Shown here piece after piece: positions 33,410 to 63,992 of a stretch of 64,000 bases of DNA. The stretch lies in contig JADGCV010000010.1 of the NCBI GenBank assembly GCA_015228815.1, positions 46,218 through 110,217 of the forward strand. The letters run 5' to 3'. The notes under the pieces are model-generated. The model saw nothing but the letters and a program-made list of their open reading frames with translations. It had not been told where the DNA came from and did not search any database. Every line of letters begins with the position of its first letter. The first letter of the stretch is position 1. The position numbers were made by a program, and so were the translations under genes. This DNA is from Magnetococcales bacterium (lineage in GTDB: Bacteria; Pseudomonadota; Magnetococcia; Magnetococcales; UBA8363).

Positions 33410-34866
33410 TGGGCATGAATATGCTTGATCGCATTGTGGTGGCCATCTCGCCAGAGCGAGGTCTGCGCCGTGTTCGAGCCAGGGGGGCCATCGATGTTTT
33501 GCGCCGTGAATACGATGGTGCCAAGACTGGCCGTCGCACCGATGGGTGGATTACGCCCGGCAATGACGCCAACGCAGAAATCGCCATCGCCTCCACCCGG
33601 TTGCGCAACCGCGCCAGGGATCTGGTGCGCAACAACCCGTTTGCTGCCAAGGCGGTCATCACCTATGCCTCCAGCATGGTAGGCTCCGGCATCCGTCCCA
33701 GGCCCAAAGCCGAATCCAAAGTTCTGGACGCTCAGATCACCAGTCTGTGGGAGGATTTTTCCAACCAATGTGATGCCGACGGTCGCACCAACTTTTACGG
33801 TATCCAAACATTGATGGTGCGCAGCATGGTGGAGAGCGGGGAATGCCTCCTCCACATGATCAGCCGCCCATCATCTTTCGGGCTGGCCGTGCCGCTGCAA
33901 CTCCGGGTGCTGGAAGCTGACCATCTGGATGTTTCTCGTGACCAAAACCTTCCGGGTGGTGGCTTCATCCAGCAGGGGATCGAGTTCGACAGCCACGGAA
34001 CCCGGGTGGCTTATTGGCTCTACCCACAACACCCGGGGTCGTCCAACATCACCGCCAAAACGGTGAGTATTCGTGTTCCGGCATCAGATGTGGTCCACCT
34101 TTTTGACCGCATGCGCCCCGGACAAAACCGTGGCGTCACCTGGTTCGCACCAGCGTTGCTGCGCATGCGTGATCTCGACGACTACGATGAAGCGGAGTTG
34201 ATGCGCAAAAAGATCGAGGCCTGTTTCGTCGGGTTTGTCATCAACGCCGATCCTGGTCAGTCGCTATCGATTCCAAAGACAGAAGCCAACGAAAAACGGG
34301 TGGAATCGTTCGAGCCGGGCATGGTGTCGTATTTGCCTCCCGGAAAAGATATCCGTTTTGGTTCCCCGGCAACCACCTCTGGATATGTCGAATACATGCG
34401 CTGGCACTTCCACGCGGTATCGGCGGCCTTGGGGCTGACCTACGAATTGCTGACGGGTGACCTGTCCCAGGTCAACTATTCCTCCCTGCGTGCCGGATTG
34501 ATCGAGTTTCGCCGTCGGATCGATGCCATGCAACGACAGGTGTTGGTTCCGCAGCTCTGTACCCCAGTCTGGAACCGGTTTTTGTCCACCGCCCAAGCTG
34601 CCGGGCTGGTGGGTGATGGCAAAATCAGAATCCAGTGGACGCCGCCCCGGTTTGAAGCGGTTGACCCGCAAAAAGACACCATGGGCGAAATCCTCATGAT
34701 CCGGGCCGGATTGATGTCTCTTGCCGAGGGAATTGCCCGCCAGGGCTACGATCCCGACGTTGTAACGGCGGAATTCGCCGAGATGAATAAGGTTCTTGAC
34801 CAACTGGGTATCACTCTGGATACCGATCCCCGCAAATCGACCCGCAACGGGCAGCACAGGCAGTAG
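33409..34866 (+). CDS. portal protein, lambda family
   Basis: 'REYDGAKTGRRTDGWITPGNDANAEI...LRNRARDLVRNNPFAAKAV' is a lambda-type portal N-terminus. Size and position fit. Confidence 0.85.
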   Translation: MGMNMLDRIVVAISPERGLRRVRARGAIDVLRREYDGAKTGRRTDGWITPGNDANAEIAIASTRLRNRARDLVRNNPFAAKAVITYASSMVGSGIRPRPKAESKVLDAQITSLWEDFSNQCDADGRTNFYGIQTLMVRSMVESGECLLHMISRPSSFGLAVPLQLRVLEADHLDVSRDQNLPGGGFIQQGIEFDSHGTRVAYWLYPQHPGSSNITAKTVSIRVPASDVVHLFDRMRPGQNRGVTWFAPALLRMRDLDDYDEAELMRKKIEACFVGFVINADPGQSLSIPKTEANEKRVESFEPGMVSYLPPGKDIRFGSPATTSGYVEYMRWHFHAVSAALGLTYELLTGDLSQVNYSSLRAGLIEFRRRIDAMQRQVLVPQLCTPVWNRFLSTAQAAGLVGDGKIRIQWTPPRFEAVDPQKDTMGEILMIRAGLMSLAEGIARQGYDPDVVTAEFAEMNKVLDQLGITLDTDPRKSTRNGQHRQ

Positions 34867-44067: not shown

Positions 44068-47000
44068 ATGCCTACGGCTTCTCTTGAATTCGCCCTTTTC
44101 ATGGACACCGCCAACATTGCCCAGGGGATGGGGCGTGCCAGGAAGGAAGTGGCGGCGGGTTTGCGTGGCATGACCCAGGCAGCCAAGGATGAACGCAGGC
44201 GTATCGAAGATGCATTGGCCAACATGACCGCCTTCCGGGAACTCAAAAAAGGGGTTGCCGAGGCCAGGGCCGAATGGGTGAAGACTCACACGGAGGCCAC
44301 CCGGCTTGGGGCGGCATTGAACCAGGTTGGCCCACCCACAAAGGCGATGAACCGGGAGTTTGAAACAGCGAAAAAAGTCGCAGCCGAAGCCCAAGCCACT
44401 TTTGTCCAGCAGAATGTCACCCTCCATTCCCTGCGCACCGCGATGGCCGCTGCCGGGGTGTCTACGACCGGTTTGGCTGCGGCTCAGGCCAGACTTCGTG
44501 CCGAGTTGGTCGCCAATGAGGCCAGGTTTCAGGCACAGTCCCGCTCGATGTCGCGCATCCAGGATGCCAGAAACATCCTCGACCTTGGCTCCAGGGTCAA
44601 CACCGACCGGGATATTCTGCGTCTCCAGGCGGCCTACGAACGGTTGCGTGCCTCCGGGAATCTGACCGGCATCGAGTTGGCACGCGCCCATGTAAAAATG
44701 ACGGAAGGCATCATCGCCTTGCGCAACGGCACGGACGGTTGGGCGGCACGCCTTGCCCTGGTCCGGGAACAACTGGTGCAACTGGCCATTGTCGGTGCGG
44801 GGATTGGCTTGGCGGCCAGGGAGGCCATCGCCTTCGAATCCGCCATGGCCAATGTTCGCAAGGTGGTGGATTTCCAGACCCCCGGCGAATTCAAGGAGTT
44901 GACCGCCGATCTTAAACACCTGTCGCGGGAAATTCCGACCTCCCTGGACGGTCTGGCGAAAATCGCCGAGGCGGGCGGGCAGATGGGGATTGCCACCAGG
45001 GAGATTCGTGGATTTACGGAAATCGTGGCCAAGATGTCCACGGCGTTCAACATTTCCCCCAACGAAGCCGGGGAAGCGGTCGGTCGGCTGATGAACATTT
45101 TCAAGTTGACCGTGCCGGAGACCCAACGTTTGGGCGACGCCCTCAATCATCTGGGAAACAACACCAACGCGGTGGAACGGGACATCCTCAACGTCCTGAA
45201 CCGCACGGGTAGCATGGCCAAGGTGTTTGGACTCGCCAATACGGAGGCCGCTGCCCTTGGAACGGCATTTTTGGCCCTGGGGCGTCCCCCGGAGATTGCC
45301 GCCACGGGCATCAACGCCTTGATGCAGACCCTCCAGACCGCCCCCACCCGTGAGGGGGAGTTCAAGCAGGCGTTGCAGCGTATCGGTTTTTCCGCCGAGC
45401 AGTTGGCCGCCGACCTTGCCAAAGCGCCACAGCAAACCTTGATGCATTTTCTGGAAACATTGAAAAGCCTGGACGCACAGACCCAATCGGAAACTTTGGT
45501 GAGGCTTTTTGGCCGGGAATATGCCGACGACCTTGCCCTCCTGCTGACGGGTCTGGACACCTACAAAAAGACCCTCGATCTGGTGGCCAAAGAGACCCAC
45601 TATGCGGGGTCGATGCAGAAGGAGTTCAACGAACGGGTCAAGACCACCGCCTCCCAGATACAATTGGCAGGCAATGCCTTCTCCGAAGCGGGGGTGAATC
45701 TGGGGTCTGCGTTTTTGCCTGCCATTGTCGCGGCCTCTCAAGGGATGGCCGCGATGGCCCATGGCGTTGCGGTTCTGGCCGACCGTTTTCCCCTTTTATC
45801 CGCATCCGTCGTTGCAACCGTGGCAGCCCTGGCGGGATGGGGTGCATTGCGGTTGGCGTGGAGCGTCATGCGGGCCGGGGTCATGGCGTTGACTGTCGAA
45901 CTGGGTTCGCTTGCCGTGGCGGCTCGTGCGTTGGTGCTTTCGCCAGTAGGAGCCGTGTTGACCGCTGCGGGTGTCGCGGCCTATGCGTTGGCCAAAGCCA
46001 CCGCCTCCAGCGTCCTGCCGTTGCTGGAAAACGCCGCTGCCCTGGGCAAAAGTCGGGAGGCGACGGCGGAAAAAATCAAAGTTCTGGAGACGTTGAAAAA
46101 AACTCTGGAGACCACCAAGGAAGGGACCCGGGAACACCTCGCTGCGGAAGAAAAACTGGCGGCCATTCTGCCAAAAGCCAATCTTTCTCTGGACGAGCAG
46201 GGACGAATTCTGGCCAGGACAGGAACGGCTGCCAGCGTCAACACCGAAAAACTCAAAGAATATCTCGACATGCTCAAACGAGAGGATCGCCAAACCCTGG
46301 CGTTGCAACTGGAGACGCAATCGCGGGCCTTGAGTGTCGGAAAAAAGGAACTGGCCTCCTATACCGAAGGCTTGCGCCATTGGTATGGCATCGGTGTTGG
46401 CAAGGCACAAACCGAATCGCAAAAATTTTGGCTGTGGTTGAACAAACTGACCGGCACCTACGAGCAGAATATCACCAAGGGTGCGGAACTGCGCCGCCAA
46501 TTCGATGAATCAGGGACCGGGTTGAACTCTTTGTTGACCGAGGCGAAAAAGGCGGGGATGTCCATGGAGGATCTGGGTCGGGCCATGGATGGCATCCATG
46601 CCGATGCCGCGACCAAAGGACAGGTCCTGGCCCTTTTCCGGGACATGACGGGTGCAGCGACCGCCGCCGCCGGAAAGGTGGGCACACTTGCCGACACCTT
46701 CAAACAATTCTCCATCGCCCTTTCCGGACCAACCGCCGCCGCCAGGAAAGGATTCGTGGAGGCCATGGGTGCCGCCGAGCTCCAACTGGGCAAATACAAT
46801 GAAGCCCTGGGGCAGCGCCGGGCAAAACTGAAGGATGCGGTGGACAACGAAACCAACTCGTACAAAGCCATGGCATCCGCCGCCGCAGTCGCCTTCGAAA
46901 CGGTCACCCAGGTCCTGGACGAGCAATTCGACCATCGCCGTGACCGGTTGCAAGCCATGGCGGGCGAGGAAGCACAGGCGCATCAGGTCTCCCAACGGGC

Positions 47001-48615
47001 CATGCTGCATGCCACCACCGCCCTGGCCATCGAGGAAACCCACGCCAAACTGACCCAGGCCGACCGGTCCATGCGGCAGTCCCTGGAATTATCGAAAAAA
47101 GAGTTTCAAACCAAGATCGACCATGCCAGGCGGCTGGGACTGGATGCCGCCAGGGTGGATGAGGAACGTTTGCAATCCCAGCGTGGCATCCTGGAAAAAA
47201 CGGCGGTCGCCTATCGCCAAAACATCGACCGGATGATCCAGGAGGAAAGACGGTTGCGGGATGAAGCCAGGAGTCTCGCCGAGCAGCGCAAGGAGTTCAA
47301 CGCATCGGTGGCGGATCGCGTGGCCAACGTCCAGGAAAAGGGGATGGACCCCGTGCAGGTCGATGTCTCCCGGCAAAAACGTCTTGCCGTGGAGCAATCC
47401 CAGGCCGAGGCTGCGTTGCAGGCGGGGAATTTTGCAACCGCGCGCAAACATGCCGAGAAGATGATCGCCCTGGCCGAATCGACCTCCGATGCGGTGCGCC
47501 GGGGTGACCAGGTGGTGATGGACGCCAAGACGGCAACAGCCCGTGCCATTCAACAGGTTCAGGCCGCGGCACAAATCGAAAACCAGGCATTTCTCGCGGA
47601 AGAAAAGGCAAACGTGGAAGCTGCCGATGCCCTGCAAACATCGGCGGCGGCATCAACCGACACGTTGACCCGATTGCGGAATGTTTTGCAAGAGGTCGAT
47701 GCCGCTCTTGCCAAGGACCATACCCTCATCCTTGGAGCCGACACGAAAAAAATAGCGCAAATCGGCCCGGAAATCGATGCGATCCTGGAGAAGATCAATC
47801 CGGTGGTGCAAATCAAGGCCGAACTTCAAAGCAGTGCAACGGCGTTGGAAACCGTCATCGAGGATGTGCGCCAAGGGGCCACCGACCGGGCCAAAGCGAA
47901 GATCGATCACGCCGCCAACATTTTTGCATCATTCAAGACAGAATTTGCCGGTTGGCAGCCGGAGGTCAAGGCGACCTTCGATGCGGTTGCCGCACACAAC
48001 GCCATCGATGGCCTGGTGGCCAAGATCAAGGAGATTGACAACCAGGGAGCCAAGGTGACGTTCGAAGCGGAAACCAGTGCTGCCATGGGCAAGATCGATC
48101 ATTTGATTGCCCGGATCACGGACATTCCGTCCGAGAAAACAGTCACCATCAACTATATCGAACGCAAGAATGTTGCCCCGAACCAGGGGGTTGCGACGGG
48201 GTTTGCCCGTGGCGGCTTCCTGCCGGGTTGGGGCGACGAAGACAACGTCCCCGCCTGGTTGCAGCCAGGCGAATTCGTGTTGAACAAGCAGGCCGTGCGC
48301 AAATACGGGCTGGAAAAAATTCACGCCCTGAACCAAATGCGGCTGCCACAGTTCGCGCACGGAGGTTTGGTGCGGCAACTGCGATCCAAGATGCCACGGT
48401 TTGAAATGGGTGGCGTGGTGCGCAATCTGGTGATTCCGACCCTGCCACGGATGTCATTCGCGGGTGGCGGGGCGGTCACACCTCCGGTTGAAGGGGTGGT
48501 GCGACTTGAATTGATCACGAACAGCCACCGGGTTCCCCCATCCCTCACCGGCAGCCGGGCACAAGTTCGTGAGTGGGTTCAGGCATTGCAGGAGTCGCAG
48601 CGGGGGATGGCGTAA
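44068..48615 (+). CDS. tail tape measure protein
   Basis: 1515 aa, Ala/Leu/Glu-rich coiled-coil character. Core 'GLAKIAEAGGQMGIATREIRGFTEIVAKMSTAFNISPNEAGEAVGRLMNIF' is typical of TMPs. Position after G/GT. Confidence 0.9.
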   Translation: MPTASLEFALFMDTANIAQGMGRARKEVAAGLRGMTQAAKDERRRIEDALANMTAFRELKKGVAEARAEWVKTHTEATRLGAALNQVGPPTKAMNREFETAKKVAAEAQATFVQQNVTLHSLRTAMAAAGVSTTGLAAAQARLRAELVANEARFQAQSRSMSRIQDARNILDLGSRVNTDRDILRLQAAYERLRASGNLTGIELARAHVKMTEGIIALRNGTDGWAARLALVREQLVQLAIVGAGIGLAAREAIAFESAMANVRKVVDFQTPGEFKELTADLKHLSREIPTSLDGLAKIAEAGGQMGIATREIRGFTEIVAKMSTAFNISPNEAGEAVGRLMNIFKLTVPETQRLGDALNHLGNNTNAVERDILNVLNRTGSMAKVFGLANTEAAALGTAFLALGRPPEIAATGINALMQTLQTAPTREGEFKQALQRIGFSAEQLAADLAKAPQQTLMHFLETLKSLDAQTQSETLVRLFGREYADDLALLLTGLDTYKKTLDLVAKETHYAGSMQKEFNERVKTTASQIQLAGNAFSEAGVNLGSAFLPAIVAASQGMAAMAHGVAVLADRFPLLSASVVATVAALAGWGALRLAWSVMRAGVMALTVELGSLAVAARALVLSPVGAVLTAAGVAAYALAKATASSVLPLLENAAALGKSREATAEKIKVLETLKKTLETTKEGTREHLAAEEKLAAILPKANLSLDEQGRILARTGTAASVNTEKLKEYLDMLKREDRQTLALQLETQSRALSVGKKELASYTEGLRHWYGIGVGKAQTESQKFWLWLNKLTGTYEQNITKGAELRRQFDESGTGLNSLLTEAKKAGMSMEDLGRAMDGIHADAATKGQVLALFRDMTGAATAAAGKVGTLADTFKQFSIALSGPTAAARKGFVEAMGAAELQLGKYNEALGQRRAKLKDAVDNETNSYKAMASAAAVAFETVTQVLDEQFDHRRDRLQAMAGEEAQAHQVSQRAMLHATTALAIEETHAKLTQADRSMRQSLELSKKEFQTKIDHARRLGLDAARVDEERLQSQRGILEKTAVAYRQNIDRMIQEERRLRDEARSLAEQRKEFNASVADRVANVQEKGMDPVQVDVSRQKRLAVEQSQAEAALQAGNFATARKHAEKMIALAESTSDAVRRGDQVVMDAKTATARAIQQVQAAAQIENQAFLAEEKANVEAADALQTSAAASTDTLTRLRNVLQEVDAALAKDHTLILGADTKKIAQIGPEIDAILEKINPVVQIKAELQSSATALETVIEDVRQGATDRAKAKIDHAANIFASFKTEFAGWQPEVKATFDAVAAHNAIDGLVAKIKEIDNQGAKVTFEAETSAAMGKIDHLIARITDIPSEKTVTINYIERKNVAPNQGVATGFARGGFLPGWGDEDNVPAWLQPGEFVLNKQAVRKYGLEKIHALNQMRLPQFAHGGLVRQLRSKMPRFEMGGVVRNLVIPTLPRMSFAGGGAVTPPVEGVVRLELITNSHRVPPSLTGSRAQVREWVQALQESQRGMA

Positions 48616-54917: not shown

Positions 54918-55261
54918 TGTCGCCATCCCTGCCGCTCCCCTTGATCCGCATCCTTGCATCCGTCGGGAGTCCCTGCGTCTTGTTCAGGTTTACATCGCCG
55001 GACTCAAACCCAATGTGGCGTTCAGGTTGTCGCCGACAACGACCAGGTCCAGTCCGTCGGGAAATTTTCGCGCCAAACATGCCGGGAATATTTTCATCAG
55101 TGTGGCGAATTTGCTTGATTCTTGCGGGGGTGGGTAATCATAATGTGGATTCATGGAATGGAGGGTGACCGAAGGAATTTTTTCGCGAGTATCGGCCCTC
55201 TCTGACTGTTTCCCTACAACCGGCGCGCCAGTTCCCAACTTTACTATATTTTGGAGGTTTA

Positions 55262-55861
55262 ATGATTAAATTCTTAGGCAATTTGATCGTATTTGTAACT
55301 TTAGCGGCAATGTCCATGACAGGATGCGGAAATATTGTAGTACCAGGACAACATCTCACTGTCACTACAAACATCAAGCCCTGTCTTCAATCAAAATACG
55401 ACGGTGATTTTGGTTTAACACTTGGAGTTGAACAAATTAAGTGGCAAGACAAGCTGGTCAAGTTTGGCATTGATAATCTGCCAAAATCACAGAAAAGAAT
55501 GCTTGAGCAGCAATTTACATGGATTCCTCAGGACAAGTTCATAGTATTTGACGTTTACCTTGAAAACCGCGCTCAAAGTCCGGTGACATGGAACCCCAGG
55601 AATGCACCAGTGTTCGCTCTGCTTGATAAAAAGGGAACCATGTATAATGCATCAGGACAGAACGAAGGGAATATGGATGATATCTCAGCAAAGATAATGA
55701 TAGGTGCGACAGTAAACCCAGGACGGAAACTGAGAGGAACAGTCGTATTCGACGTTCCTAGAACGGATTCGTATGTTCTGCTCGTTAAACAAGGTAAATG
55801 GACAGGTGGATGGAGCGTTATTGGCGGCAATGAATTTATGAGATGCAATGTTGATAGTTAA
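55262..55861 (+). CDS. lipoprotein (DUF4352-like Ig-fold candidate)
   Basis: Signal peptide plus lipobox 'AAMSMTGC'. GGAGG lies upstream of the ATG. Confidence 0.7.
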   Translation: MIKFLGNLIVFVTLAAMSMTGCGNIVVPGQHLTVTTNIKPCLQSKYDGDFGLTLGVEQIKWQDKLVKFGIDNLPKSQKRMLEQQFTWIPQDKFIVFDVYLENRAQSPVTWNPRNAPVFALLDKKGTMYNASGQNEGNMDDISAKIMIGATVNPGRKLRGTVVFDVPRTDSYVLLVKQGKWTGGWSVIGGNEFMRCNVDS

Positions 55862-55932
55862 CACGTATAAGATCGTAGCCGTTCAGGCTCCCTCTCCCTC
55901 TGGGAGAGGGCCGGGGTGGGAGGATGTCATTT

Positions 55933-57084
55933 ATGCAGCTTAAAAGTTTGGTCAGCGTCTTTTCGACTTATTTCCTCCTGATTGGCTTGGCCATCTGCTT
56001 GGCTATGGTTCCGTCGGTAGTCGATGCAAGTGATTCTGACAAAAATGTTTACACGGTCCAGGTTTCTGCGAGTCGCTCGCGCGAGGACGCCATTGCCGAA
56101 ATGGAAAAACTGCGACGACAGGGTTTTACCCCTTTCATGCTGGATATTTATAATAGTAAGAACATCCTCTGGCATACTGTACAGATTGGCTATGATACCA
56201 ATTTACAGGTCGCTAAAAAACAAGCCCGGAAATTCAGGAAGAAAAGTGGGAAAAGTGCCGAAGTGTTAACGCTTCCCGCAACATCATTTGCTTACTTTAA
56301 GCTGCGTGCATCAGGAGAATCTTTTGAAGGGACTCAGAAATTATGGACAAATCAGCCATCACCAGCGATAGAAGAGCCTCCCAAAAATTTATCTGGTACC
56401 TATTCGCAGCAACCATCAGTGAGTTTGAAGGACATAAAACCAGACGTCTCTGATCCTGTGACCGATGGTAAGAAATTGAAGAGTATGGAACCAGACGTCC
56501 CAGATTCTTTAGACGTCGCGAGCCCTTTGACCAATGATAAGAAATGGTATGTTGTTGCCAGTGTTGGTGTATCTCATGTTGGTAAAAGTTCTGAAGATTT
56601 GGATCGCGACCTTTCCTCTCAAGGTTTTACCACCACTTCCTCAATCGATAGAACCAACCAAGGTTTAAAGTTGATTGGAGGGTACAAGTTTGCTCGGTAT
56701 TTAGGAGTTGAGGCTGGTTTTGTCCATTTCACGAAAGTCAACACCAAGATAGACGCATCTAATGCGGGCGGCATTGCCAATGCGGTCGTCAACCACGCTC
56801 CATTGACGATGAACGGTGCTGTAATGTCTGGGGTTGGCACTTGGCGAATTACCCCTGAAATCGCTTTACATGGAAAGGCCGGTGGATTTTTGTGGAACGG
56901 AAAGGTCAACGCCAACGCCCTGGGGGATAGCGTAACCCGCAAAGATGATGGCATCGATCCAATATTGGGTGTAGGTGCCGAGTTTAACATATCAGACCAG
57001 ACGTTGTTTCGTATCGAATGGGATCGGTATTTAACTTCCGATAAGATGGATCTCTTTTCTTCTGGAGTTGGAGTCCGGTTTTAA
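55933..57084 (+). CDS. SPOR-domain / C-terminal beta-barrel outer-membrane protein
   Basis: Signal peptide ending 'VVDA|SD'. 'YTVQVSASRSREDAIAEMEKLRRQGFTPFM...WHTVQIGYDTNLQVAKKQARKF' is SPOR-like. The C-terminal alternating beta strands end in '...GVGVRF' (aromatic terminus of OMP barrels). Confidence 0.7.
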   Translation: MQLKSLVSVFSTYFLLIGLAICLAMVPSVVDASDSDKNVYTVQVSASRSREDAIAEMEKLRRQGFTPFMLDIYNSKNILWHTVQIGYDTNLQVAKKQARKFRKKSGKSAEVLTLPATSFAYFKLRASGESFEGTQKLWTNQPSPAIEEPPKNLSGTYSQQPSVSLKDIKPDVSDPVTDGKKLKSMEPDVPDSLDVASPLTNDKKWYVVASVGVSHVGKSSEDLDRDLSSQGFTTTSSIDRTNQGLKLIGGYKFARYLGVEAGFVHFTKVNTKIDASNAGGIANAVVNHAPLTMNGAVMSGVGTWRITPEIALHGKAGGFLWNGKVNANALGDSVTRKDDGIDPILGVGAEFNISDQTLFRIEWDRYLTSDKMDLFSSGVGVRF

Positions 57085-60000
57085 TGCGTATACTTACAAA
57101 AAGACAATTAATACCTCCTTTTGGCTATCCATTGATTGTTGGTCTGGTATTGGTTCTGCTTGTTATTTCTGGGTGCTTTGAAGGGGGTAACGTTGATATT
57201 ATAACCAAACAAACATCTGATGACACTGATATCAGTTCCTCTGGCGGGGACGGTATTGGACCTGATGATAATATTTATATAGTTACTTTCGATGGTACAT
57301 CCTCAGACTCATCAGAATCTTCAGCAAATAATAACGCTTCACTGTTAGCAGACTTCGAAACAATAGATATACCAAAGAGAGGATTTGCAAATAATTATTC
57401 TTCATTTGATTTTCTATCAAAAACTGGTGCCAGATTTGATCGCCTTTTATCTTTTAGTACAAAATTTGCGTTCGCACAATCATTTGATAGAGTGAGATGG
57501 TTATCTCAACATGTGCAGATGGATTCTGAATTTTGTTATGAAGAAAAGAAAAAATATCCGGGAAATGCCTATTGCGGATTTGCTTCAGTCTTGATGGGAG
57601 CGGACTATCTTTTAAATGGGGAAACTACACCAAAGGCACCAGCGACCCTTGGTTATAGTGATGATACGTCAAGATGGATCGTAAATTCTGTAAAAGATGC
57701 ATTCAAAGATAAATACAGTCCATGTGGCGGCCTCCTTGGTATCCTTCCAGATGATGACATACCAACGTTTGCTAAAGAGCTAGGTGTGAGTAAACCAGAC
57801 TCACAATCAAAATCTGATGGAGCCACACCATTTGATAAAACAAGTCGTTCTAAAACTGCAGCAGAAGAATGGCTTAGAACCGCCTTGAATAATCGTCGGC
57901 CTGTAGTTGCAAGAATTCCTTACCAAGGTAATAAAATTCTTGGGCAAAAATCAAGAGAGAATTATTTCTCAGGAGGAACAAAAACAGTAGAAATGAAGGC
58001 AGACCCAAAGTCGGAGAAAGACCCAGAGTCGGTTGTTCGTCATTGGATATTGATCGCTGAAATAAATGACGATACGGTTTTGACCTATGATCCGGATCCG
58101 CATGCCAAGAATGAAGAAGCTGGCATAAGGAGGTATACCAAGAGTTCATTTTTTGAACAGCTAGTAGACAATAGGAATAAATCTAAAGGTCGGATGTTTA
58201 TGTATCAATTATGTGCGGATTGTGAATCTGGTACAGAGGCATTTGCAGCACCAGCCCAAGGAGTAACATTAAGCCTTAATCATTTGCACACAGCAGGCAA
58301 CAGCACTCCCATTGTGTCACCTCTTGTTCCAAATTGCCAGTTTTCTTCACAAAACATGCCTCCTGGACTGTCATTGGATACAGAAGGGCGGATTAATGGT
58401 ACGGCAACACAAACAGGATCATCTTCACCGACAATTATAATGCAATGTAACAATGATAATGTTAATCGTGTAGCGACAAAAAATATTAGTATGACAATCG
58501 TTTCAGATAATTTGAATACCACACCAGGGACGGATACAATAGCCAGCATTGATCTTATTACCCTATCAAAGCTCAAAAATGGTAAAGTTGGAAATATATA
58601 TTCATTGCCACTTTCCACATCCAGAGCATCTGATTCTTTATCTTTCAGCGTTATTGACGGAAAATTACCACCCGGCCTAAACCTGACTGGCGGTACTATT
58701 GTGGGAAAACCAACTCTAAGTGGTACCTACAGTTTCGATATACGTGCAACAATATCAACAGCTTCAGCTACGAAAAACTTTACAATAGTTGTCGATCCCC
58801 AAACGGATGCTCTAGTAATTGCGCCAACGCTAAATAAAATACAACCTGATACCGTTTTAGGCAAAAACGGACAGCAGCTAATGAAGTTAGTCGGTTCTGG
58901 ATTTAGCGATGGCTCGCGTGTTCGCCTTGTGGACATTACCAACAATGTAACCTATGAAAAAAGTCCGGTATCCGTAAAGGATGCCGAAATTGAGATTAGA
59001 GCCAACTTCTCTACAGACAAAGCCACCTGGACGGCTACTGTAGTAGGGCCAACAGGATTGGAGTCTGCACCTGTTTCATTTTCAGTGTTGGCTCCAAGTA
59101 CAGAAGCAAGTCGTCCCATCGTGTGGCCAAGAGCTTGGACGCAGCCACTTGATGACGACCTCAGAGTGACTGCAGAGTATGGAGCCTTTGGTAAAGATTG
59201 TTCGAATGCCGATCTAACGGCAGTGTATACATACTATCTCGATAGTGGTCGACTGGAACACCTCGGCTTGGACTTATCTGCTGCTGCTGGAAAAGTTGTA
59301 AAGAGCATTGCACCGGGTAAGGTTATCTATAGTGGAAAGATGTGGACTGAAAAATGGGCTGACGTTATTCTGGTAGAACATTGGACTACCAGTGCGGAAA
59401 CTTTCACAGCGGTATACGGCCATCTTAATTCAAGTGTGAAAAAAGGCGATGAAGTCAAGGCAGGAGACCAGCTTGGTACAGTTTATAATCTGCCGTCTCC
59501 GTATGGATCTCATCTTCACTTTGGCGTTGCAAAAGACAGGCAAACCTCTGTTCCAGGATTTTCCAGTGATAACAATTCAACAAATGGCGCATGCACACAG
59601 CATCCTGGTGTAACTATTAATCCAGAAACTTTCTTGCAAGGGAGATCACCGGCAGATGTTGCTCCTACAAATGCAAAGTTGGCTATTCCAATCAACTTGA
59701 CGCCTGGCAGTGAGACGAGTCCAGGAAGCACCGTAGGGAGTGGTCAAGTCACCTTAAGTTGGTCCTCAGTAACTGGGGCAACGTATTACGAAGTCATAGT
59801 TAAAGATACTGATACAGGCTCTTCACAAAGCACGACTGTAAAGACTACATCTTATAGTTCCAACCTTGTCCCTGGAAAAAAATATCAATGGTATGTTTCT
59901 GCATGTAACGGTAACGGCTGCTCCAAACACACCTTAGGTCAATATTTCCAAACTCCAGGAGATAGCATACCAGATACGCCGACCATCGACATGACCAACT

Positions 60001-61448
60001 CTGTATTTGGAAGTATTACCGGTCCAGGTACAATGATGAGTAGTACGTCGGTAAGCCTGTCATGGAGTACGATGAGTCGGGCGACACGCTACGAACTAGG
60101 TGTTCGGGATGTCACTACCAATAACCTCGTTGTAGATACCTCTATTGTTGGAACATCCTATACTGCAAATCTGGATCCAGAAAAACAATACAAGTGGAAT
60201 GTCGCTGCCTGTAATAGTTCCGGATGTTCAAAATATACAACTCCAATCTATTTTCAAACACCAAAACTCGCTGCCTCATTTTCACCGCCTGTTGTAACCT
60301 TGACCGATGGCCAGATCGGTTCCAATCCTCCTGTCCCTGTAGCAGGTACCTTGACTGTCAATAGTGGTTCATCTGGTACATCAGGGACATTGAGTGCCAA
60401 CAATCCTGACGGTGGTTCATTGACCTATAGTATCGTGACCAATGGGTCGAAGGGGGTGGCAACGATCACTAATTCTGCCACCGGAGCCTACACCTATGCG
60501 CCAAACGCTGGTAGCAGTGGGACGGATACATTCACCTTCAAAGTTAACAATGGCAAAGTGGATTCCAATGTTGCGACGATCACGGTCACGATCACTCCGG
60601 ACAGCGCGGTGGTGCCGACCATCACTTCATTGAGCCCGACCAGTATGACCGCCTCTGGGACGCAACAGACCCTGACAATCAACGGCAGCAATTTTGTTGC
60701 TGGTAACCTGGTTCAGTTCAAGTGGGGCGTAGGATCAGAAGCCAATATTTGGAAAAATTCGACTTCGACACCGAGTGTGACGTCCAACCAAATCAGCCTG
60801 GGTATATATCCTGGCACCGTCTCCGATACGATTCATGTTCGTGTATGTACCAACAGCGATGCAATCAATTGTTCTTCACAACAATCTATGACAGTAACGT
60901 CTGCAACTTCATTTTCACCGCCTGTTGTAACCTTGACCGATGGTCAGATCGGTTCCAAAGGTATCGTTGCCAAGACCGGTCAAACCACATCTTATGCAGC
61001 GGGGGACGATGGTGCCCTGCAAAAGGGCGTTGCTTGGCCCAACCCGCGCTTCACCGATAATAGCAACGGCACGGTCACGGACAATCTGACAGGTTTGATT
61101 TGGCTCAAGAGTGCCAATTGCTTTAACCCTCAGGATTGGACCTCTGCCCTGGCCACGGCCAAAGGGTTGGCCAATGGGCAGTGCGATCTGGCGGATGGCT
61201 CCGTTGCCGGTGATTGGCGACTACCCAACATCAACGAACTGGAAAGTTTGGTCGACTATAGTCATCATTGGCTCTATCAGGAGGCCGGGTATCCGTTTTC
61301 GGGCGTCCGGCTCAGCCACTATTGGTCGGGCTCCACGCACGCCCACTACACGTCCGGCGCCTGGTACGTGCACCTCGGCTACGGCATCGTGTACCACAAC
61401 GACAAGGCGAACAGCAACCTTGTCTGGCCTGTGCGAGGCGGAGAATGA
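57084..61448 (+). CDS. 1454-aa multidomain lipoprotein, DGR target 1 (papain-like peptidase, Ig/IPT/FN3-like repeats, M23 peptidase, C-terminal DUF1566 domain carrying VR1)
   Basis: Lipobox 'LLVISGC'. Candidate Cys/His pair 'GNAYCGFASVLMG' / 'VRHWILIAEINDD'. 'PPGLSLD'/'PPGLNLTGGTIVGKPT' Ig-type repeats. M23 motifs 'HLGLDLSAAAG', 'AVYGHL', 'GSHLHFGV'. Two FN3-like 'LSWS...Y(Y/E)...Y.W.V.ACN..GCS' modules. DUF1566 'DWRLPNINELESL'. Confidence 0.85.
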   Translation: MRILTKRQLIPPFGYPLIVGLVLVLLVISGCFEGGNVDIITKQTSDDTDISSSGGDGIGPDDNIYIVTFDGTSSDSSESSANNNASLLADFETIDIPKRGFANNYSSFDFLSKTGARFDRLLSFSTKFAFAQSFDRVRWLSQHVQMDSEFCYEEKKKYPGNAYCGFASVLMGADYLLNGETTPKAPATLGYSDDTSRWIVNSVKDAFKDKYSPCGGLLGILPDDDIPTFAKELGVSKPDSQSKSDGATPFDKTSRSKTAAEEWLRTALNNRRPVVARIPYQGNKILGQKSRENYFSGGTKTVEMKADPKSEKDPESVVRHWILIAEINDDTVLTYDPDPHAKNEEAGIRRYTKSSFFEQLVDNRNKSKGRMFMYQLCADCESGTEAFAAPAQGVTLSLNHLHTAGNSTPIVSPLVPNCQFSSQNMPPGLSLDTEGRINGTATQTGSSSPTIIMQCNNDNVNRVATKNISMTIVSDNLNTTPGTDTIASIDLITLSKLKNGKVGNIYSLPLSTSRASDSLSFSVIDGKLPPGLNLTGGTIVGKPTLSGTYSFDIRATISTASATKNFTIVVDPQTDALVIAPTLNKIQPDTVLGKNGQQLMKLVGSGFSDGSRVRLVDITNNVTYEKSPVSVKDAEIEIRANFSTDKATWTATVVGPTGLESAPVSFSVLAPSTEASRPIVWPRAWTQPLDDDLRVTAEYGAFGKDCSNADLTAVYTYYLDSGRLEHLGLDLSAAAGKVVKSIAPGKVIYSGKMWTEKWADVILVEHWTTSAETFTAVYGHLNSSVKKGDEVKAGDQLGTVYNLPSPYGSHLHFGVAKDRQTSVPGFSSDNNSTNGACTQHPGVTINPETFLQGRSPADVAPTNAKLAIPINLTPGSETSPGSTVGSGQVTLSWSSVTGATYYEVIVKDTDTGSSQSTTVKTTSYSSNLVPGKKYQWYVSACNGNGCSKHTLGQYFQTPGDSIPDTPTIDMTNSVFGSITGPGTMMSSTSVSLSWSTMSRATRYELGVRDVTTNNLVVDTSIVGTSYTANLDPEKQYKWNVAACNSSGCSKYTTPIYFQTPKLAASFSPPVVTLTDGQIGSNPPVPVAGTLTVNSGSSGTSGTLSANNPDGGSLTYSIVTNGSKGVATITNSATGAYTYAPNAGSSGTDTFTFKVNNGKVDSNVATITVTITPDSAVVPTITSLSPTSMTASGTQQTLTINGSNFVAGNLVQFKWGVGSEANIWKNSTSTPSVTSNQISLGIYPGTVSDTIHVRVCTNSDAINCSSQQSMTVTSATSFSPPVVTLTDGQIGSKGIVAKTGQTTSYAAGDDGALQKGVAWPNPRFTDNSNGTVTDNLTGLIWLKSANCFNPQDWTSALATAKGLANGQCDLADGSVAGDWRLPNINELESLVDYSHHWLYQEAGYPFSGVRLSHYWSGSTHAHYTSGAWYVHLGYGIVYHNDKANSNLVWPVRGGE
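61287..61442 (+). repeat. DGR variable region VR1 (with invariant flanks)
   Basis: Gap-free alignment with 63752-63907. The first 22 and last 21 nt are identical. About 34 mismatches (hand count) in the central 114 nt, mostly in codon positions 1-2 of NNC codons. Confidence 0.85.
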
Positions 61449-63025
61449 TGGTCCCCTCTTCCCTGTCATCCATGGATCATCCCCTGTTCACTGCGGAGAA
61501 CCTTTATTGGGCCTGGCGAAAATGTAGGCGTCGAAAAAGCCATATCCGGAGCGCTACCGATTTTGAGTACAATCTGGAAGAGAACCTGTTCGCCTTGCGT
61601 GATGAGTTGCGGCGGCGACGTTACTGTCCCGCTCCCTCGCGGGCCTTTCTGGTGGCAAAGCCCAAACGTCGGGAAATCTTTGCAGCTCAATTTCGTGACC
61701 GCGTGGTCCATCATCTTCTCGTGGATCACCTGGAACCGGGTTGGGAGCGCCGTTTTATTCATGATTCCTTTGCCTGCCGTAAAGGCAAGGGGACCCATGC
61801 GGCGGTGGAACGACTGCGTTCCATGACGCGCCAAGTGACTGCCAACGGTTCCCGCCCGGCGTGGTATCTGCAGTTGGACATCAAAGGCTTCTTCATCTCC
61901 ATCGATCGGCGGATCCTTTTTTCAAGGTTGGTGGCGCACGAAATAGATCCCGTCGTCCTCGATCTGATCCGGCTTCTGGTTTTCCACGACCCCACCCGGA
62001 ATTGCCGCTTGTGCGGTCAGCCCATGTCCGCGTTTCAGGCGTTACCGGCCCATAAGACCCTGTTCAAGGCTGCCTCGGAGTGTGGGCTCCCCATCGGCAA
62101 TCTGACCAGCCAGTTTTTCGCTAACGTCTATTTGGATACACTGGATCAGTTTTGTAAGCATCACCTGAAAATCCGGCATTATGTCCGCTATTGTGACGAT
62201 TTCGTGATTCTGGCCAACCATGCGGACGAGTTGCGGGTCTGGGAGCGGCAGATTGAAACATTTCTCTGGGCTCACCTCCGATTGCGTTTGAATGAGAAAA
62301 GGAAACTGCGCCCCGTTTCCGACGGTATCGATTTTCTGGGATACATCGTGCGCCCGGATTATCTTCTGACACGCAAGCGTGTGGCGGGCGCTCTTCGGGA
62401 AAGACTGTCCGGAGCTCAAGCCATTCTGGTAGCTGAAGGTATGACGCTGGCTGAGGGGGAATCCCGTTTTTTCCCTTGGAACCGGACTCTTATGAACCGA
62501 GTCAGACAATGGCTGGTCTCCTTTCGCGACCATACCGAACGGGCCTCCAGTCACCGTCTTTGGGGTGACATGATACGCCGTTTCCACTGGTTGGATGAAT
62601 ATTTCATCTGGCGCAACGGCATCCCAAACTTTCGTTACCCGCCACCCTTCCATTCTCAGAGTTTTAATCAGCAGAAACGTTGGTTCCTCAGTCTGTTTCC
62701 GGATCACGTGGTCATGATCCGATTGGGCTCCTACTGGGAGATCGCTGCGTCCCGCGCCGACCTGTTACCTATTCCCAGTTGGCACGGTCGGCGTTTTACT
62801 GAACGCAGTTTCCAGGCGATCAACCGCATCCTTCTGACTCGATGGGGGCGTGTGGTCTGGATTGATGAGACCGGACGGAGGATCACTCCCATTGCGGAAC
62901 GAGTATTGACAGGACACTGGCCGGGGAATTTTTCGGGTTGTCCACCAAAACCAGATTCTCCAATGGTTGTTGAAGAGCGGCATGGAGGTGAAAAGCCTCC
63001 TTTTCAGCAGGCGGAACAAGGGTGA
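61445..63025 (+). CDS. DGR-type reverse transcriptase with MutS-domain-I-like C-terminal extension (alternative start ATG 61472)
   Basis: 'FRDRVVHHLLVDHL', 'SFACRKGKGTHAAV', 'GLPIGNLTSQFFANVYL' (62093-62113) and 'YCDD' (62189-62200). The ATGATG start overlaps the target-1 stop. Confidence 0.9.
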   Translation: MMVPSSLSSMDHPLFTAENLYWAWRKCRRRKSHIRSATDFEYNLEENLFALRDELRRRRYCPAPSRAFLVAKPKRREIFAAQFRDRVVHHLLVDHLEPGWERRFIHDSFACRKGKGTHAAVERLRSMTRQVTANGSRPAWYLQLDIKGFFISIDRRILFSRLVAHEIDPVVLDLIRLLVFHDPTRNCRLCGQPMSAFQALPAHKTLFKAASECGLPIGNLTSQFFANVYLDTLDQFCKHHLKIRHYVRYCDDFVILANHADELRVWERQIETFLWAHLRLRLNEKRKLRPVSDGIDFLGYIVRPDYLLTRKRVAGALRERLSGAQAILVAEGMTLAEGESRFFPWNRTLMNRVRQWLVSFRDHTERASSHRLWGDMIRRFHWLDEYFIWRNGIPNFRYPPPFHSQSFNQQKRWFLSLFPDHVVMIRLGSYWEIAASRADLLPIPSWHGRRFTERSFQAINRILLTRWGRVVWIDETGRRITPIAERVLTGHWPGNFSGCPPKPDSPMVVEERHGGEKPPFQQAEQG

Positions 63026-63316
63026 ATGAATTTTGCAAACCCGGACCAGCCGGGTGTGAGGGAAGGAAGGGGACGCTCGGTCAGGATCAGGACCAACCTC
63101 AGATGAATGCAAAAATGAAATTTGCGGCTGCTCCAGAGAGTGAAGAAAAGGCGGCACCGTCAACGCGGGTGAGGCGGAAGGGACGAAAACCTGGAGGATA
63201 GATGCTGTTCTGAAGAGTTGATTGGCCGAGTAACGATCGGGTCTTTGGCTACTGTAGTCGTGGTTGTGGGAGTGACATATCGGTACTGAAGTGACGGCCT
63301 TGGAAGGGAGGAAACG

Positions 63317-63913
63317 GTGAAACGGATGCGCATGTTTTTGGATAACGGGGTAGCAGAGTGGATACTGGCCATATCTTTATTTTTTGTATTTTCCTCAGTG
63401 CATGCTGCGGGAGCGCCGCCCGCCCCGGTTCCCAAGACGGGCCAGACCACTTTGTATGGCGCTGGCGACGACGGCGCGTTGCAAAAGGGTTTGGCATGGG
63501 CCACCCCCCGCTTTTCGGACATGGGAGATGGGACGGTACGGGATACCCTGACCAGTCTGATCTGGATGAAAAATGCCAATTGTTGGGGTGACATGGCTTG
63601 GTTATCCGCCCTGGCCAAGGTTGCTGGTCTTAACGGTGGCACGGAAACCTGTTCCGGCTATACCGGGAACCAAACCGACTGGCGTCTGCCGAGTATCAAG
63701 GAACTTAGAAGCCTGATCGACTATGGTCATTTCAAACCGGCGTTGTCGGCTGGGTATCCGTTTTCGGGCGTCCAGACCAACTACTATTGGTCTGGATCCA
63801 CGGTCGCGAGTGGCACGTCCGGCGCATGGGTCGTGAGCCTCGACAACGGCTACGTGAACGACAGCGACAAGACGTACAGTTTCTATGTCTGGCCTGTGCG
63901 AGGCGGACCATAG
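63317..63913 (+). CDS. secreted DUF1566-domain protein, DGR target 2 (carries VR2)
   Basis: GTG 63317 follows GGGAGG. Signal peptide '...FVFSSVHA|AG'. 'KTGQTTLYGAGDDGALQKG', 'DWRLPSIKELRSL'. Confidence 0.85.
   Translation: MKRMRMFLDNGVAEWILAISLFFVFSSVHAAGAPPAPVPKTGQTTLYGAGDDGALQKGLAWATPRFSDMGDGTVRDTLTSLIWMKNANCWGDMAWLSALAKVAGLNGGTETCSGYTGNQTDWRLPSIKELRSLIDYGHFKPALSAGYPFSGVQTNYYWSGSTVASGTSGAWVVSLDNGYVNDSDKTYSFYVWPVRGGP
63752..63907 (+). repeat. DGR variable region VR2 (with invariant flanks)
   Basis: See VR1. Same length and same invariant ends: GGGTATCCGTTTTCGGGCGTCC ... GTCTGGCCTGTGCGAGGCGGA. Confidence 0.85.
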
Positions 63914-63951
63914 GGCCTTGGATACTTTGGGTGCTTTGCGAGGGGGGAGTG

Positions 63952-63977
63952 CAGAGGGGGGAGGCTTCCCCCCTCTG
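63952..63977 (+). other. GC-rich hairpin downstream of VR2 (10-11 bp stem, GGCT tetraloop)
   Basis: CAGAGGGGGG-AGGCTT-CCCCCCTCTG read directly. It lies 45 nt after the last invariant VR2 base. Confidence 0.8.
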
Positions 63978-63992
63978 CCCGCCGCAGGCGGG
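63978..63992 (+). other. second short GC hairpin (terminator-like)
   Basis: CCCGCC-GCA-GGCGGG followed by ATTCTTGT. The window ends at 64000. Confidence 0.5.

Follow-up and report, generated by a model that had tools for sequence, protein, structure and literature searches.

Diversity-generating retroelements (DGRs) that serve more than one target are already known, and approximately 29% of known DGRs carry no accessory gene (PMC5758913). Systems that combine a MutS-like (MSL) protein and Avd with DUF1566/CLec2 targets constitute Architecture D, target category d, of Wu et al. 2018 (PMC5758913). The uncultured loci L005, L007, L010, L011, L012, L014, L015 and L016, which are among the relatives compared below, belong to this Architecture D group. 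As DGRs of this class, targets of this family and layouts with several targets have all been described, the present locus adds little as a DGR. It does offer a worked example in which a reverse transcriptase (RT) and two blocks resembling variable regions (VRs) are no guarantee of a working element, and comparison with relatives pinpoints both the place where the template (TR) is expected and what has replaced it. The features of the locus are listed in Table 1; the complete 64 kb (64,000 nt) stretch of DNA analysed is referred to as the window.

Table 1 Features of the cassette in the window.
Feature	Position	Strand	Description	Source
Target gene 1	57084..61448	+	1454-aa predicted lipoprotein	ORF listing, Pfam
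Target 1 Lcl_C domain, C-terminal	aa 1329-1451, nt 61068-61436	+		Pfam
Block 1	61287..61442	+	VR-like, fills the TR slot immediately 5' of the RT start
TR-type 3' flank, GAATGATGGTCCCCTCTTCCCTGTCA	61443..61468	+	Homologous to the relatives' post-TR sequence GAATGATGGCCCCGTCTTCCCTG
DGR-type reverse transcriptase	61445..63025	+	526 aa, intact
Target gene 2	63326..63913	+	195 aa as called; signal peptide and Lcl_C domain	ORF listing, Pfam
Block 2	63752..63907	+	Canonical variable region (VR2)
VR-type 3' flank	63908..63950	+	CTTTGG-like repeats (CCTTGG, ACTTTGG, TGCTTTG), as after the relatives' VRs
GC-rich hairpin GCAGAGGGGGGAGGCTTCCCCCCTCTGC	63951..63978	+	12-bp stem, 4-nt loop, ~44 nt 3' of VR2

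Two VR-like blocks and the reverse transcriptase between them

A preliminary description of this DNA reported two blocks of 156 nt that align without gaps and have identical ends of 22 and 21 nt. Both alignment and occurrence counts confirm this, and in a self-comparison the pair appears as a match of 160 nt at 78%. The first 22 nt (GGGTATCCGTTTTCGGGCGTCC) and the last 21 nt (GTCTGGCCTGTGCGAGGCGGA) are the same in blocks 1 and 2; the 64 kb contains exactly two copies of each, and shuffled sequences are expected to contain none. The block termini have also been given as CCGTTTTCGGGCGTCC...GTCTGGCCTGTGCGAGGCGGA. Between the identical ends we find 34 differences, distributed over codon positions 1, 2 and 3 as 15/13/6, which reproduces exactly the approximate count reported before; the reported concentration in NNC codons was also recovered, with 20 of the 24 differing codons in block 1 being NNC. 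As an upstream control we used the portion of the two domains that precedes the block, where 109 codons align. These are 57.8% identical, with differences of 35/36/67 by codon position, and the identity profile jumps sharply from this level to 100% at both block ends. Compared with the upstream control, the block centre has a deficit of changes at codon position 3 (Fisher p = 0.001). This is not the pattern of ordinary paralogue divergence.

Both target proteins match the Pfam family PF07603 Lcl_C (formerly DUF1566), with E-values of 2e-25 and 1e-28, and the matches cover the last ~120 residues. In target 1 this C-terminal domain is preceded by Pfam matches to an M23 peptidase (aa 726-821), fn3 and Big_9, and the N-terminus has a signal with a putative lipobox, ISGC, read by eye from the sequence. 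An alternative GTG start at 63317 would extend target 2 to 198 aa; its counterpart in relatives is a target of ~197-201 aa located 3' of the RT. An AlphaFold model of target 2 has a domain pLDDT above 90. When used in a fold search, the best match of the model was the C-terminal domain of Legionella Lcl (8q4e, E 1e-5), and further matches comprised many weak ones to C-type lectin-like domains (E 0.007-0.5). No match was obtained by searching the PDB with the target 2 sequence. The earlier assignment of the block ends to DUF1566/C-type-lectin-fold domains agrees with the Lcl_C matches in both targets and with the fold match of target 2, and the view that both blocks are VR-like ends of Lcl_C/C-type-lectin-like domains is supported. 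The C-terminal location of a VR within a C-type lectin fold, as is typical of DGR targets, is found for both targets by Pfam and again in the target 2 model. The target 1 sequence has an exact match on record as a called protein, and both proteins are singletons in the protein collection, assigned to an NCBI contig of 117,497 nt.

The RT contains LPIGNLTSQFFANVYLD and YVRYCDDF, corresponding to motif 4 ([LIV]GxxxSQ) and the catalytic YxDD by which DGR-clade RTs are recognised. LPIGNLTSQ and YCDD are invariant in an alignment with six relatives, to which the RT is 54-64% identical and in which it shows no sign of decay. Pfam identifies an RVT_1 match (E 8e-20), and the best match among PDB sequences is the 328-aa RT 8ub7_A (E 5e-39), which we take to be the Bordetella phage bRT; group II intron RTs score 1e-13 or weaker. 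The window RT is thus a DGR-type enzyme as judged from its sequence, and the DGR hallmarks attributed to it previously are present. A C-terminal extension of ~200 aa is conserved within the clade. BLASTP and Pfam searches for a MutS_I-like identity of this extension gave no match, and hhalign against MSL proteins reached a probability of 30% only (E 5.5e-4). RT scans of genome, metagenome and viral contigs recovered distant relatives only.

The template slot in related loci and in the window

Ten RT-bearing relatives were compared (L001, L005, L007, L009, L010, L011, L012, L014, L015 and L016). The usual gene order in the clade is target(VR1) - MutS-like - bAvd - A-rich TR - RT - small target(VR2). 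The bAvd gene lies directly before the template slot in eight of the nine relatives with visible upstream genes (L005, L007, L010, L011, L012, L014, L015 and L016; the short contig of L001 was left out of this count). Seven of these eight also carry a MutS_I-like gene, the L010 contig beginning in an unidentified partial ORF at that point. In L009, the closest relative by RT, an MNT/HEPN pair is located upstream of the TR in place of avd. A small Lcl_C target follows the RT in 6/10. The template slot abuts the RT start in all ten; it is A-rich in nine, with 43-49 A and 10-17 AAC codons per 138 nt, and eroded in L011. The nine A-rich TRs end in GGA, followed immediately by GAATGATGG, which is the RT start. 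Mismatches between TR and VR fall at TR adenines in 13/13, 15/15, 15/15, 20/22 (two boundary positions excluded) and 23/26 cases. The target - ... - RT - target layout is served by a single TR in these loci, and no TR was found 3' of target 2 among the relatives examined.

In the window, this slot is filled by block 1. The 3' flank of block 1 is exactly that of the relatives' TRs; it supplies the last codon and stop of target 1 (GAA TGA) and contains the RT start codons at 61445 and 61448. The 5' side of block 1 is target 1 coding sequence. VR-type downstream elements are lacking, and there is no GC hairpin after block 1, the fold of 61443-61535 being no better than that of shuffled sequences. 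The elements expected of a DGR recipient, an IMH-type end and a GC-rich inverted repeat, are present at VR2 but not at block 1, and relatives have a homologous hairpin downstream of their VRs. An 18-nt similarity of 57170-57187 to the VR2 flank was judged to be due to chance. The proposal of two variable regions is not supported as it stands for block 1, which is not a normal VR but sits in the TR slot with a TR-type 3' flank. Block 1 contains 26 A and three AAC codons in the 138-nt register; among the 16 template-AAC positions, these codons occupy the final three (chance 1/560).

The block differences were set against the TRs of four relatives, L009, L005, L010 and L007, the closest of those compared. 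Adenine sites in these TRs cover 27 of the 34 differences, and the remaining seven fall at sites without adenine in any of the four; as an indirect gauge of the footprint of adenine mutagenesis claimed earlier, the former agree with it and the latter do not. The two blocks differ at 15 of the 16 AAC-template codons. Over 51 homologues, entropy is 3.10 bits at the 16 AAC-template positions versus 1.13 elsewhere in the block (p = 1e-7). Between block 2 and the TR of L009, 16 of 24 mismatches are located at TR adenines. Without any retroelement, the blocks might be paralogous lectin-like domains with ends homogenised by gene conversion and centres diverging under positive selection, and an excess of change at codon positions 1 and 2 would also be expected from diversifying selection. 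However, the blocks enclose a DGR-type RT, 15 of the 16 AAC codons in the relatives' TRs correspond to codons that differ, identity rises sharply to 100% at the block ends, and the flanks show homology to those of VRs and TRs in canonical DGRs. Gene conversion of this kind is close to excluded.

Within the window, we found no nearby TR whose mismatches with the VRs are confined almost entirely to its adenines. A third copy of either block end is absent from the 64 kb, low-stringency BLAST (78% sensitivity) detected no diverged TR, and a scan of both strands for AAC/AAT density returned no 40-codon stretch with at least nine such codons. The TR 5'-flank motif is also absent from the window. A tblastn search with Avd and MSL sequences from L005 and L007 gave no window match at E < 0.1, and both genes characteristic of the MSL/Avd type (Architecture D) are missing from the 64 kb. 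No Rfam family was found in the 54-64 kb region, and exact 21-mer and TR-junction patterns had 0 matches in viral contigs. There is no TR, avd or MutS-like gene in the window, and the cassette there is not a complete DGR. The claim that one cassette diversifies two proteins is thus not upheld for the window copy; since TR and accessory genes are missing and block 1 occupies the TR slot, it fits the ancestor and the relatives instead.

Each block was also considered as the template of the other and rejected, as just 10/34 differences lie at block 1 adenines and 12/34 at block 2 adenines. It is highly improbable that block 1 acts as the template today, in the form of a coding TR fused with target 1 from which the RT would rewrite VR2. 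Such a role would be consistent with its location in the TR slot, the TR-type 3' flank, co-transcription with the RT and the 26 adenines left, but with so few differences at these adenines VR2 was not copied from block 1, and the window has neither avd nor the conserved motif of the TR 5' flank.

Origin and state of the cassette

The explanation that we favour, with some reservation, is that the locus is a degenerate copy of the Legionella-like DGR clade with MutS-like and bAvd genes, which diversifies Lcl_C/DUF1566 C-type-lectin-like proteins, and that in this copy recombination between VR1 and TR removed the template and the helper genes. The host is probably a Magnetococcales bacterium. The RT sequence, the target and flank homology suggest descent from the MSL/Avd class, with target1(VR1) - MSL - avd - TR - RT - target2(VR2) as the putative ancestral order. 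The ancestral RT would have copied the RNA of an adenine-rich TR with errors at adenines, and the cDNA would then have replaced VR1 and VR2. The blocks would have identical ends and differ in NNC codons because error-prone TR copies replaced both regions. Subsequent recombination between VR1 and TR, which are direct repeats, would have removed MSL and avd together with the A-rich template and the elements downstream of VR1, bringing the end of target 1 right up against the RT start. Block 1 would therefore be a frozen VR in the TR slot, and block 2 would still be a structurally normal recipient. With an intact RT, no template and no Avd, the cassette would be incapable of self-diversification and would depend on a TR and Avd encoded at another place in the genome. 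We take it to be a probable relic, either frozen or non-autonomous. The lack of decay in the RT implies that the deletion would be recent or that the RT is still in use.

A different view, which we consider unlikely, holds that the DGR is intact and active, both blocks being working VRs and the TR (with or without avd) lying just beyond the window or at a different genomic location. The RT is indeed intact, VR2 has all recipient elements, and all 34 differences could formally correspond to adenines of an unseen TR. The contig, of 117 kb, continues past the window end, 93 nt after target 2, and the ~29% of known DGRs that do without an accessory gene provide precedent for part of this view. A further point in its favour is L017, a related Magnetococcales MAG with two VR-bearing targets and no RT or template nearby, the VR2 of which carries the identical 21-mer GTCTGGCCTGTGCGAGGCGGA; as the L017 targets have no nearby RT, service in trans may be normal in the lineage. 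Set against this, the template slot abuts the RT in 10/10 relatives, and in the window both the slot and its 3' flank are taken up by block 1, which has neither VR-type flank nor hairpin. In the relatives examined no TR follows target 2, and one TR for both blocks would have to carry adenines at seven sites that lack them in the L009, L005, L010 and L007 TRs, including stop-prone AAA and AGA codons. Two observations can nevertheless be held against a relic: with the window ending so soon after target 2, TR and avd may sit further along the contig or genome, and in L009, the closest relative by RT, the gene position immediately 5' of the TR is not occupied by avd.

With respect to the recombination between VR1 and TR, the AAC run at the end of block 1 would fit a crossover near 61398. 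This placement is tentative, as a TR-derived last 45 nt of block 1 would conflict with block 2, which disagrees with such a tail at four non-adenine sites (61407, 61415, 61419 and 61420). The same AAC-rich 45 nt could be true TR sequence common to VR1 if the junction were an assembly artefact, in which the assembler jumped from VR1 to TR via their common 3' end and dropped ~1.2 kb from the canonical layout. VR and TR are repeats of nearly the same sequence and have exact common ends, the relatives and closest homologues derive from metagenomes or MAGs, and the source is probably a MAG. However, exact identity with block 2 extends over just 21-22 nt, below usual final k-mers, and VR and TR were correctly resolved in the assemblies of eight relatives. 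The join moreover preserves the reading frame and yields a complete ORF of 1454 aa, as real recombination also predicts. We regard an artefact as decidedly improbable.

If the junction is real, VR-TR recombination would represent one concrete route of DGR death, showing how a hypervariable surface protein becomes fixed and bearing on estimates of active DGRs in genomes. The TR slot of L011 contains 27 A and five AAC codons, though this locus retains MSL, Avd and the flanks on either side of the TR, which shows that template loss has occurred elsewhere in the clade too. It is conceivable, if rather doubtful, that template loss is a recurrent and possibly selected switch-off or "locking" of DGR-diversified surface proteins in the clade. 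This idea draws on the VR1 fused into the TR slot in the window, on L011, in which the TR slot would have been overwritten by VR-like sequence, and on the RT-less pair of L017. If true, these loci would be snapshots of DGR self-inactivation via VR-TR recombination or self-homing. In a bolder version, the fused block 1 would still be a coding template, such that the sequence of one surface protein would seed variation in the other.

Comparison with known DGRs

The mechanistic prototype is the DGR of Bordetella phage BPP-1 (mtd-avd-TR-brt), whose RT belongs to the same family as the window RT. Both have a VR that ends a C-type-lectin-fold protein and is followed by a GC hairpin, and the adenine-specific substitution footprint of BPP-1 has a putative counterpart in the window. 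In BPP-1, however, the target Mtd is a phage tail-fibre protein of another CLec subclass, there is a single VR, and a spacer between TR and brt primes cDNA synthesis. BPP-1 is a phage element, whereas the window cassette adjoins a phage-like region but is not assigned to it.

The Legionella pneumophila DGR with target LdtA was compared using the copy on plasmid NZ_CP016869. It resembles the window in that its target is a surface lipoprotein of the DUF1566 family whose VR is C-terminal; the presence of an outer-membrane beta-barrel gene upstream of the target was counted as a further likeness. A four-helix-bundle (Avd) gene, TR and RT follow the target on the same strand, and 21/22 TR/VR mismatches are located at TR adenines. 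The RT is 41% identical to the window RT over the RT domain, and the Legionella Lcl C-terminal domain (8q4e) is the best fold match of window target 2. In contrast to the window, the Legionella RT is shorter and lacks the C-terminal extension, the TR lies ~80 nt before the RT as opposed to abutting it, and there is one target, with the TR and avd that are both absent from the window copy.

Like DGRs with several or remote targets, the window has a pair of VR-bearing targets whose block ends agree. The RT-less target pair of L017 may be an example of this class; the window has an RT and no template, and L017 has neither nearby. The Architecture D relatives have the same Lcl_C target domain with a C-terminal VR as both window targets. 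They agree with the window in block ends, in TR-RT junction sequence and in the repeats and hairpin that follow the VR, and the RT is 54-64% identical (six aligned) with its C-terminal extension conserved. The window copy differs in lacking MSL, avd and an A-rich TR, and in that its TR slot has been fused with the end of target 1.

Repeat blocks and genes of the cassette

The two blocks at the ends of target genes 1 and 2 were found to align without gaps, as given in the preliminary description. They share identical ends of 22 nt (5') and 21 nt (3'), neither of which has a further copy in the 64 kb (two occurrences each, 0 expected by chance), and their centres contain 34 differences, distributed 15/13/6 over codon positions 1/2/3. 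The domains upstream of the blocks were used as a control: over 109 aligned codons these share 57.8% identity, and their differences (35/36/67) display the usual third-position excess. Relative to this control, identity rises to 100% at both block ends, and the codon-position bias in the block centre is significant (Fisher p = 0.001). This indicates that both blocks have been overwritten by something beyond ordinary divergence.

When compared with solved structures, the reverse transcriptase (RT) located between the blocks best matches a 328-aa RT (8ub7_A, E 5e-39), with group II intron RTs far behind (1e-13). Its C-terminal extension of ~200 aa (residues ~330-526) is conserved across the clade. 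No match to this extension was obtained by BLASTP or Pfam, and a profile comparison with the MutS_I-like accessory proteins of the clade gave a weak match (hhalign probability 30%, E 5.5e-4, 80 columns). Weak MutS_I similarity has been reported for three DGR RT extensions by Wu et al. (PMC5758913).

Target 1 has a predicted lipoprotein-type signal, as read off the sequence. For target 2, the AlphaFold model has a domain pLDDT > 90, and a fold search using this model identified the Legionella Lcl C-terminal domain as the best match (E 1e-5), followed by many weak matches to C-type lectin-like domains (E 0.007-0.5). Together with the Lcl_C assignments, these matches bear out the DUF1566/C-type lectin fold originally proposed. 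The closest target 2 homologues are DUF1566 proteins from Magnetococcales MAGs. Within target 1, two copies of a 50-nt direct repeat (98% identical, both encoding the linker SFSPPVVTLTDGQIGS) enclose a 633-nt segment with a Big_9/cadherin-like domain, immediately before the Lcl_C domain; this bracketing suggests a recent domain insertion or duplication via recombination.

Upstream of the cassette is a phage-like gene block, and no tRNA genes were found in the window. A stretch of low GC content (35-48%, compared with 55-60% on both sides) holds a DUF4352 gene, the OmpA-like beta-barrel/SPOR gene and target 1 up to about codon 1070. The DGR part is ~55% GC, a content shared by the Lcl_C end of target 1. 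This difference in composition suggests that target 1 is chimeric, with a foreign N-terminal part joined to a DGR-borne domain; fusions of such a kind have been proposed by Roux et al. 2021 (PMC8144416).

Features of the window and of related loci
Feature	Sequence	Position	Remarks
Phage-like gene block	window	7794-54715	ParB_N, DEAD/ResIII helicase, DUF3987, N6/N4 methylase, terminase, portal, capsid, tape measure, tail
Two tyrosine recombinases	window	21443-24560	minus strand
Large terminase gpA	window	30320-32332	
Lambda-family portal	window	33409-34866	
Capsid	window	34891-36960	
Tape measure	window	44068-48615	
Tail genes	window	up to 54715	PHROG matches
Low-GC stretch	window	55200-60300	
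OmpA-like beta-barrel/SPOR gene	window	55924-57084	stop overlaps target 1 start
Target gene 1	window	57084-61448	1454 aa; M23 peptidase, fn3, Big_9, C-terminal Lcl_C (PF07603, ex-DUF1566)
50-nt direct repeat in target 1	window	60276-60325; 60909-60958	
Block 1	window	61287-61442	
RT	window	61445-63025	526 aa, intact; Pfam RVT_1; LPIGNLTSQ and YCDD
RT C-terminal extension	window	62430-63025	
Target gene 2	window	63326-63913	small predicted secreted Lcl_C protein
Block 2 (VR2)	window	63752-63907	
VR-type repeats and hairpin	window	63908-63978	
12-bp GC hairpin	window	63951-63978	
VR-type repeats and hairpin	L005	8758-8850	
VR-type repeats and hairpin	L007	12111-12200	
VR-type repeats and hairpin	L014	3310-3360	
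VRs of the two targets with surroundings	L007	8395-8636; 11936-12177	
VR	L011	1348-1502	
TR slot	L011	2524-2678	
Two Lcl_C targets	L017	7825-10594	
Repeat array	L017	10604-11573	
Legionella plasmid DGR	NZ_CP016869	979-5155	

Layout of related loci

RT homologues (54-64% identity) were traced to their contigs to obtain related loci, one of which (L001) was taken from a contig scan. In eight loci (L005, L007, L010, L011, L012, L014, L015 and L016) a bAvd gene is found before the template slot and RT. A small MutS_I-like gene lies upstream of bAvd in seven of the eight, the L010 contig beginning in a partial ORF at this point. An Lcl_C target is located ahead of the accessory genes in L005, L007, L011 and L012, where the contigs reach far enough, and a ~197-201-aa Lcl_C target follows the RT in six loci. 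This MSL-plus-Avd architecture with DUF1566-type targets is the layout described by Wu et al. (PMC5758913). The template repeat (TR) is strongly A-rich in nine loci (43-49 A and 10-17 AAC codons in a 138-nt register), as compared with 22-34 A and 1-7 AAC for the variable regions (VRs) in the same register, and TR/VR mismatches occur at TR adenines in 13/13, 15/15, 15/15, 20/22 (two boundary positions excluded) and 23/26 cases. The two-target layout around the RT is thus conserved in the clade, with one TR serving both targets in the relatives.

The template-slot block ends in ...GGA in all ten RT-bearing relatives, and is directly followed by GAATGATGG(C/T)CC...CTTCCCTG or a close variant, a TR 3' flank within which the RT start codon lies. 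Ahead of the block is a conserved non-coding motif, AAAGTGRRCGGAYTT. The VR 3' flank instead consists of CA(A/G)T(A/G)(A/G), a CTTTGG-like repeat run and a G-rich hairpin. After every VR of the clade, three or four (Y)CTTTGG repeats precede this hairpin (GGGGGG..TGCAG..GGGGGGAG...CCCCCC); the repeats are absent from the TR flank, and may represent a recipient-site element specific to the clade.

Individual loci depart from this pattern. The VRs of the two L007 targets are mutually identical, sharing all 15 changes relative to the TR, and their surroundings are 96% identical over 242 nt, which implies a very recent duplication or conversion between the targets. The L011 TR slot is A-depleted and VR-like (27 A and 5 AAC codons, as opposed to 43-49 A and 10-17 AAC in intact TRs), despite the presence of MSL, bAvd and both TR-type flanks. 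Only 9 of its 25 mismatches with the L011 VR occur at slot adenines, and no other block copy exists on the 9.7-kb contig; this template looks to have been overwritten by gene conversion or self-homing.

Block 1 and the missing template

At block 2 the VR-type flank is complete, hairpin included. Block 1 is followed by GAATGATGGTCCCCTCTTCCCTG, a 3' flank of the TR type, with no hairpin after it, and its 5' side is target-1 coding sequence. Block 1 thus occupies the TR slot but is VR-like in content (26 A, 3 AAC), and all parts found between VR1 and TR in the relatives are missing. That block 1 now serves as a coding template is very unlikely, given that VR2 is not copied from block 1.

A third copy of either block end is absent from the 64 kb, BLAST at a sensitivity recovering the 78% block pair detected no further block copy in the window, and neither strand of the window has a 40-codon stretch with even nine AAC/AAT codons. 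By these searches, the template repeat presupposed by the preliminary description is not present within the 64-kb window. The TR 5' motif of the relatives is likewise absent from the window, and tblastn with the relatives' Avd and MutS-like proteins gave no match there. These absences refer to the window, which ends 93 nt past target 2 and covers part of a source contig of 117,497 nt. When either block was considered as template of the other, only 10 (block 1) or 12 (block 2) of the 34 differences fell at presumed-template adenines.

In L017, an RT-less Magnetococcales target pair (MAG GCA_015228925.1), two adjacent Lcl_C targets each end in a VR-like block with VR-type flank, and one block has a 21-mer end identical to that of the window. 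The 10 kb upstream and 2.5 kb downstream contain no RT, TR or avd, and a dense array of 44-69-nt repeats follows. A TR and avd located outside the window would agree with this example of VR-bearing targets distant from any RT, as well as with the proximity of the window end to target 2, but we consider it unlikely: the native TR slot is already occupied, and a TR occurs after target 2 in no relative examined.

Based on comparative anatomy, recombination between VR1 and TR is the most likely origin of the window arrangement. The two would be direct repeats ~1.2 kb apart, and a single crossover or slippage between them would delete the VR1 flank, MSL, avd and the template, leaving target 1 reading into the TR flank. 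Indeed, target 1 ends with a codon and stop (GAA TGA) that belong to the TR flank. Of the 16 positions with AAC in the relatives' TRs, block 1 has AAC at only the final three (1/560 by chance), suggesting a crossover near 61398. The block 1 tail after ~61398 and block 2 disagree, however, at four sites that are not adenines; possible alternatives are an exchange inside the shared 21 nt, or different template alleles as the source of the two blocks. Support for different alleles comes from 7 of the 34 differences, for which the four closest relatives in the comparison (L009, L005, L010 and L007) have no adenine in their TRs; at 4 of these sites block 1 has the L005/L010 TR state and block 2 the L009 TR state. 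A single TR could explain all differences only if some of its adenines fell at uncommon positions, AAA and AGA codons among them. An assembly collapse across the repeat, in place of VR1-TR recombination, is quite improbable, as little exact sequence is shared and the repeats were correctly resolved in the assemblies of eight relatives.

Indirect evidence for past adenine mutagenesis comes from the other 27 of the 34 differences, which coincide with TR adenines of the relatives, and from the AAC-template codons, 15/16 of which differ between the blocks. Across 51 target 2 homologues, column entropy is 3.10 bits at the 16 AAC-template positions, compared with 1.13 for the rest of the block and 1.14 for the rest of the domain (p = 1e-7). 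Taken with the RT and the homologous flanks, these data make it very likely that both blocks originated from a DGR, and a history with no retroelement involved is extremely unlikely.

In the Bordetella phage and Legionella DGRs, TR RNA is reverse-transcribed by an RT-Avd complex that makes errors opposite adenines, and the resulting cDNA takes the place of the VR, with the VR 3' end and downstream structure as guides. By analogy, target 2 could still receive mutagenised cDNA, and target 1 would no longer do so because its recipient flank has been lost. With neither template nor Avd, the cassette is probably non-autonomous, and its anatomy points to past homing and present inactivity. As the RT is undamaged, either the event was recent or the RT is still in use, the missing parts being provided in trans. 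The proposal that one cassette diversifies two proteins thus fits the two-target, single-TR layout of the relatives and is not supported for the window copy, which is without template, Avd or target 1 recipient flank.

Comparison with known DGRs

Among described systems, the window copy is closest to MSL/Avd DGRs with DUF1566/CLec2 targets, for example the Legionella pneumophila DGR (PMC5758913). The Legionella plasmid copy is arranged as porin - DUF1566 target - four-helix-bundle gene - TR - RT, with 21/22 mismatches at TR adenines. In contrast to Legionella, the window's clade has a TR abutting the RT start, an RT with the conserved C-terminal extension and a second small target downstream of the RT; what sets the window copy apart from its own clade is the lack of template and accessory genes. 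The porin-family gene is directly upstream of the Legionella DUF1566 target, as the OmpA-like beta-barrel gene is upstream of window target 1, and such genes may encode a conserved outer-membrane partner for DUF1566 surface lipoproteins. Multi-target DGRs are already known, and the window copy is a degenerate member of a known DGR class.
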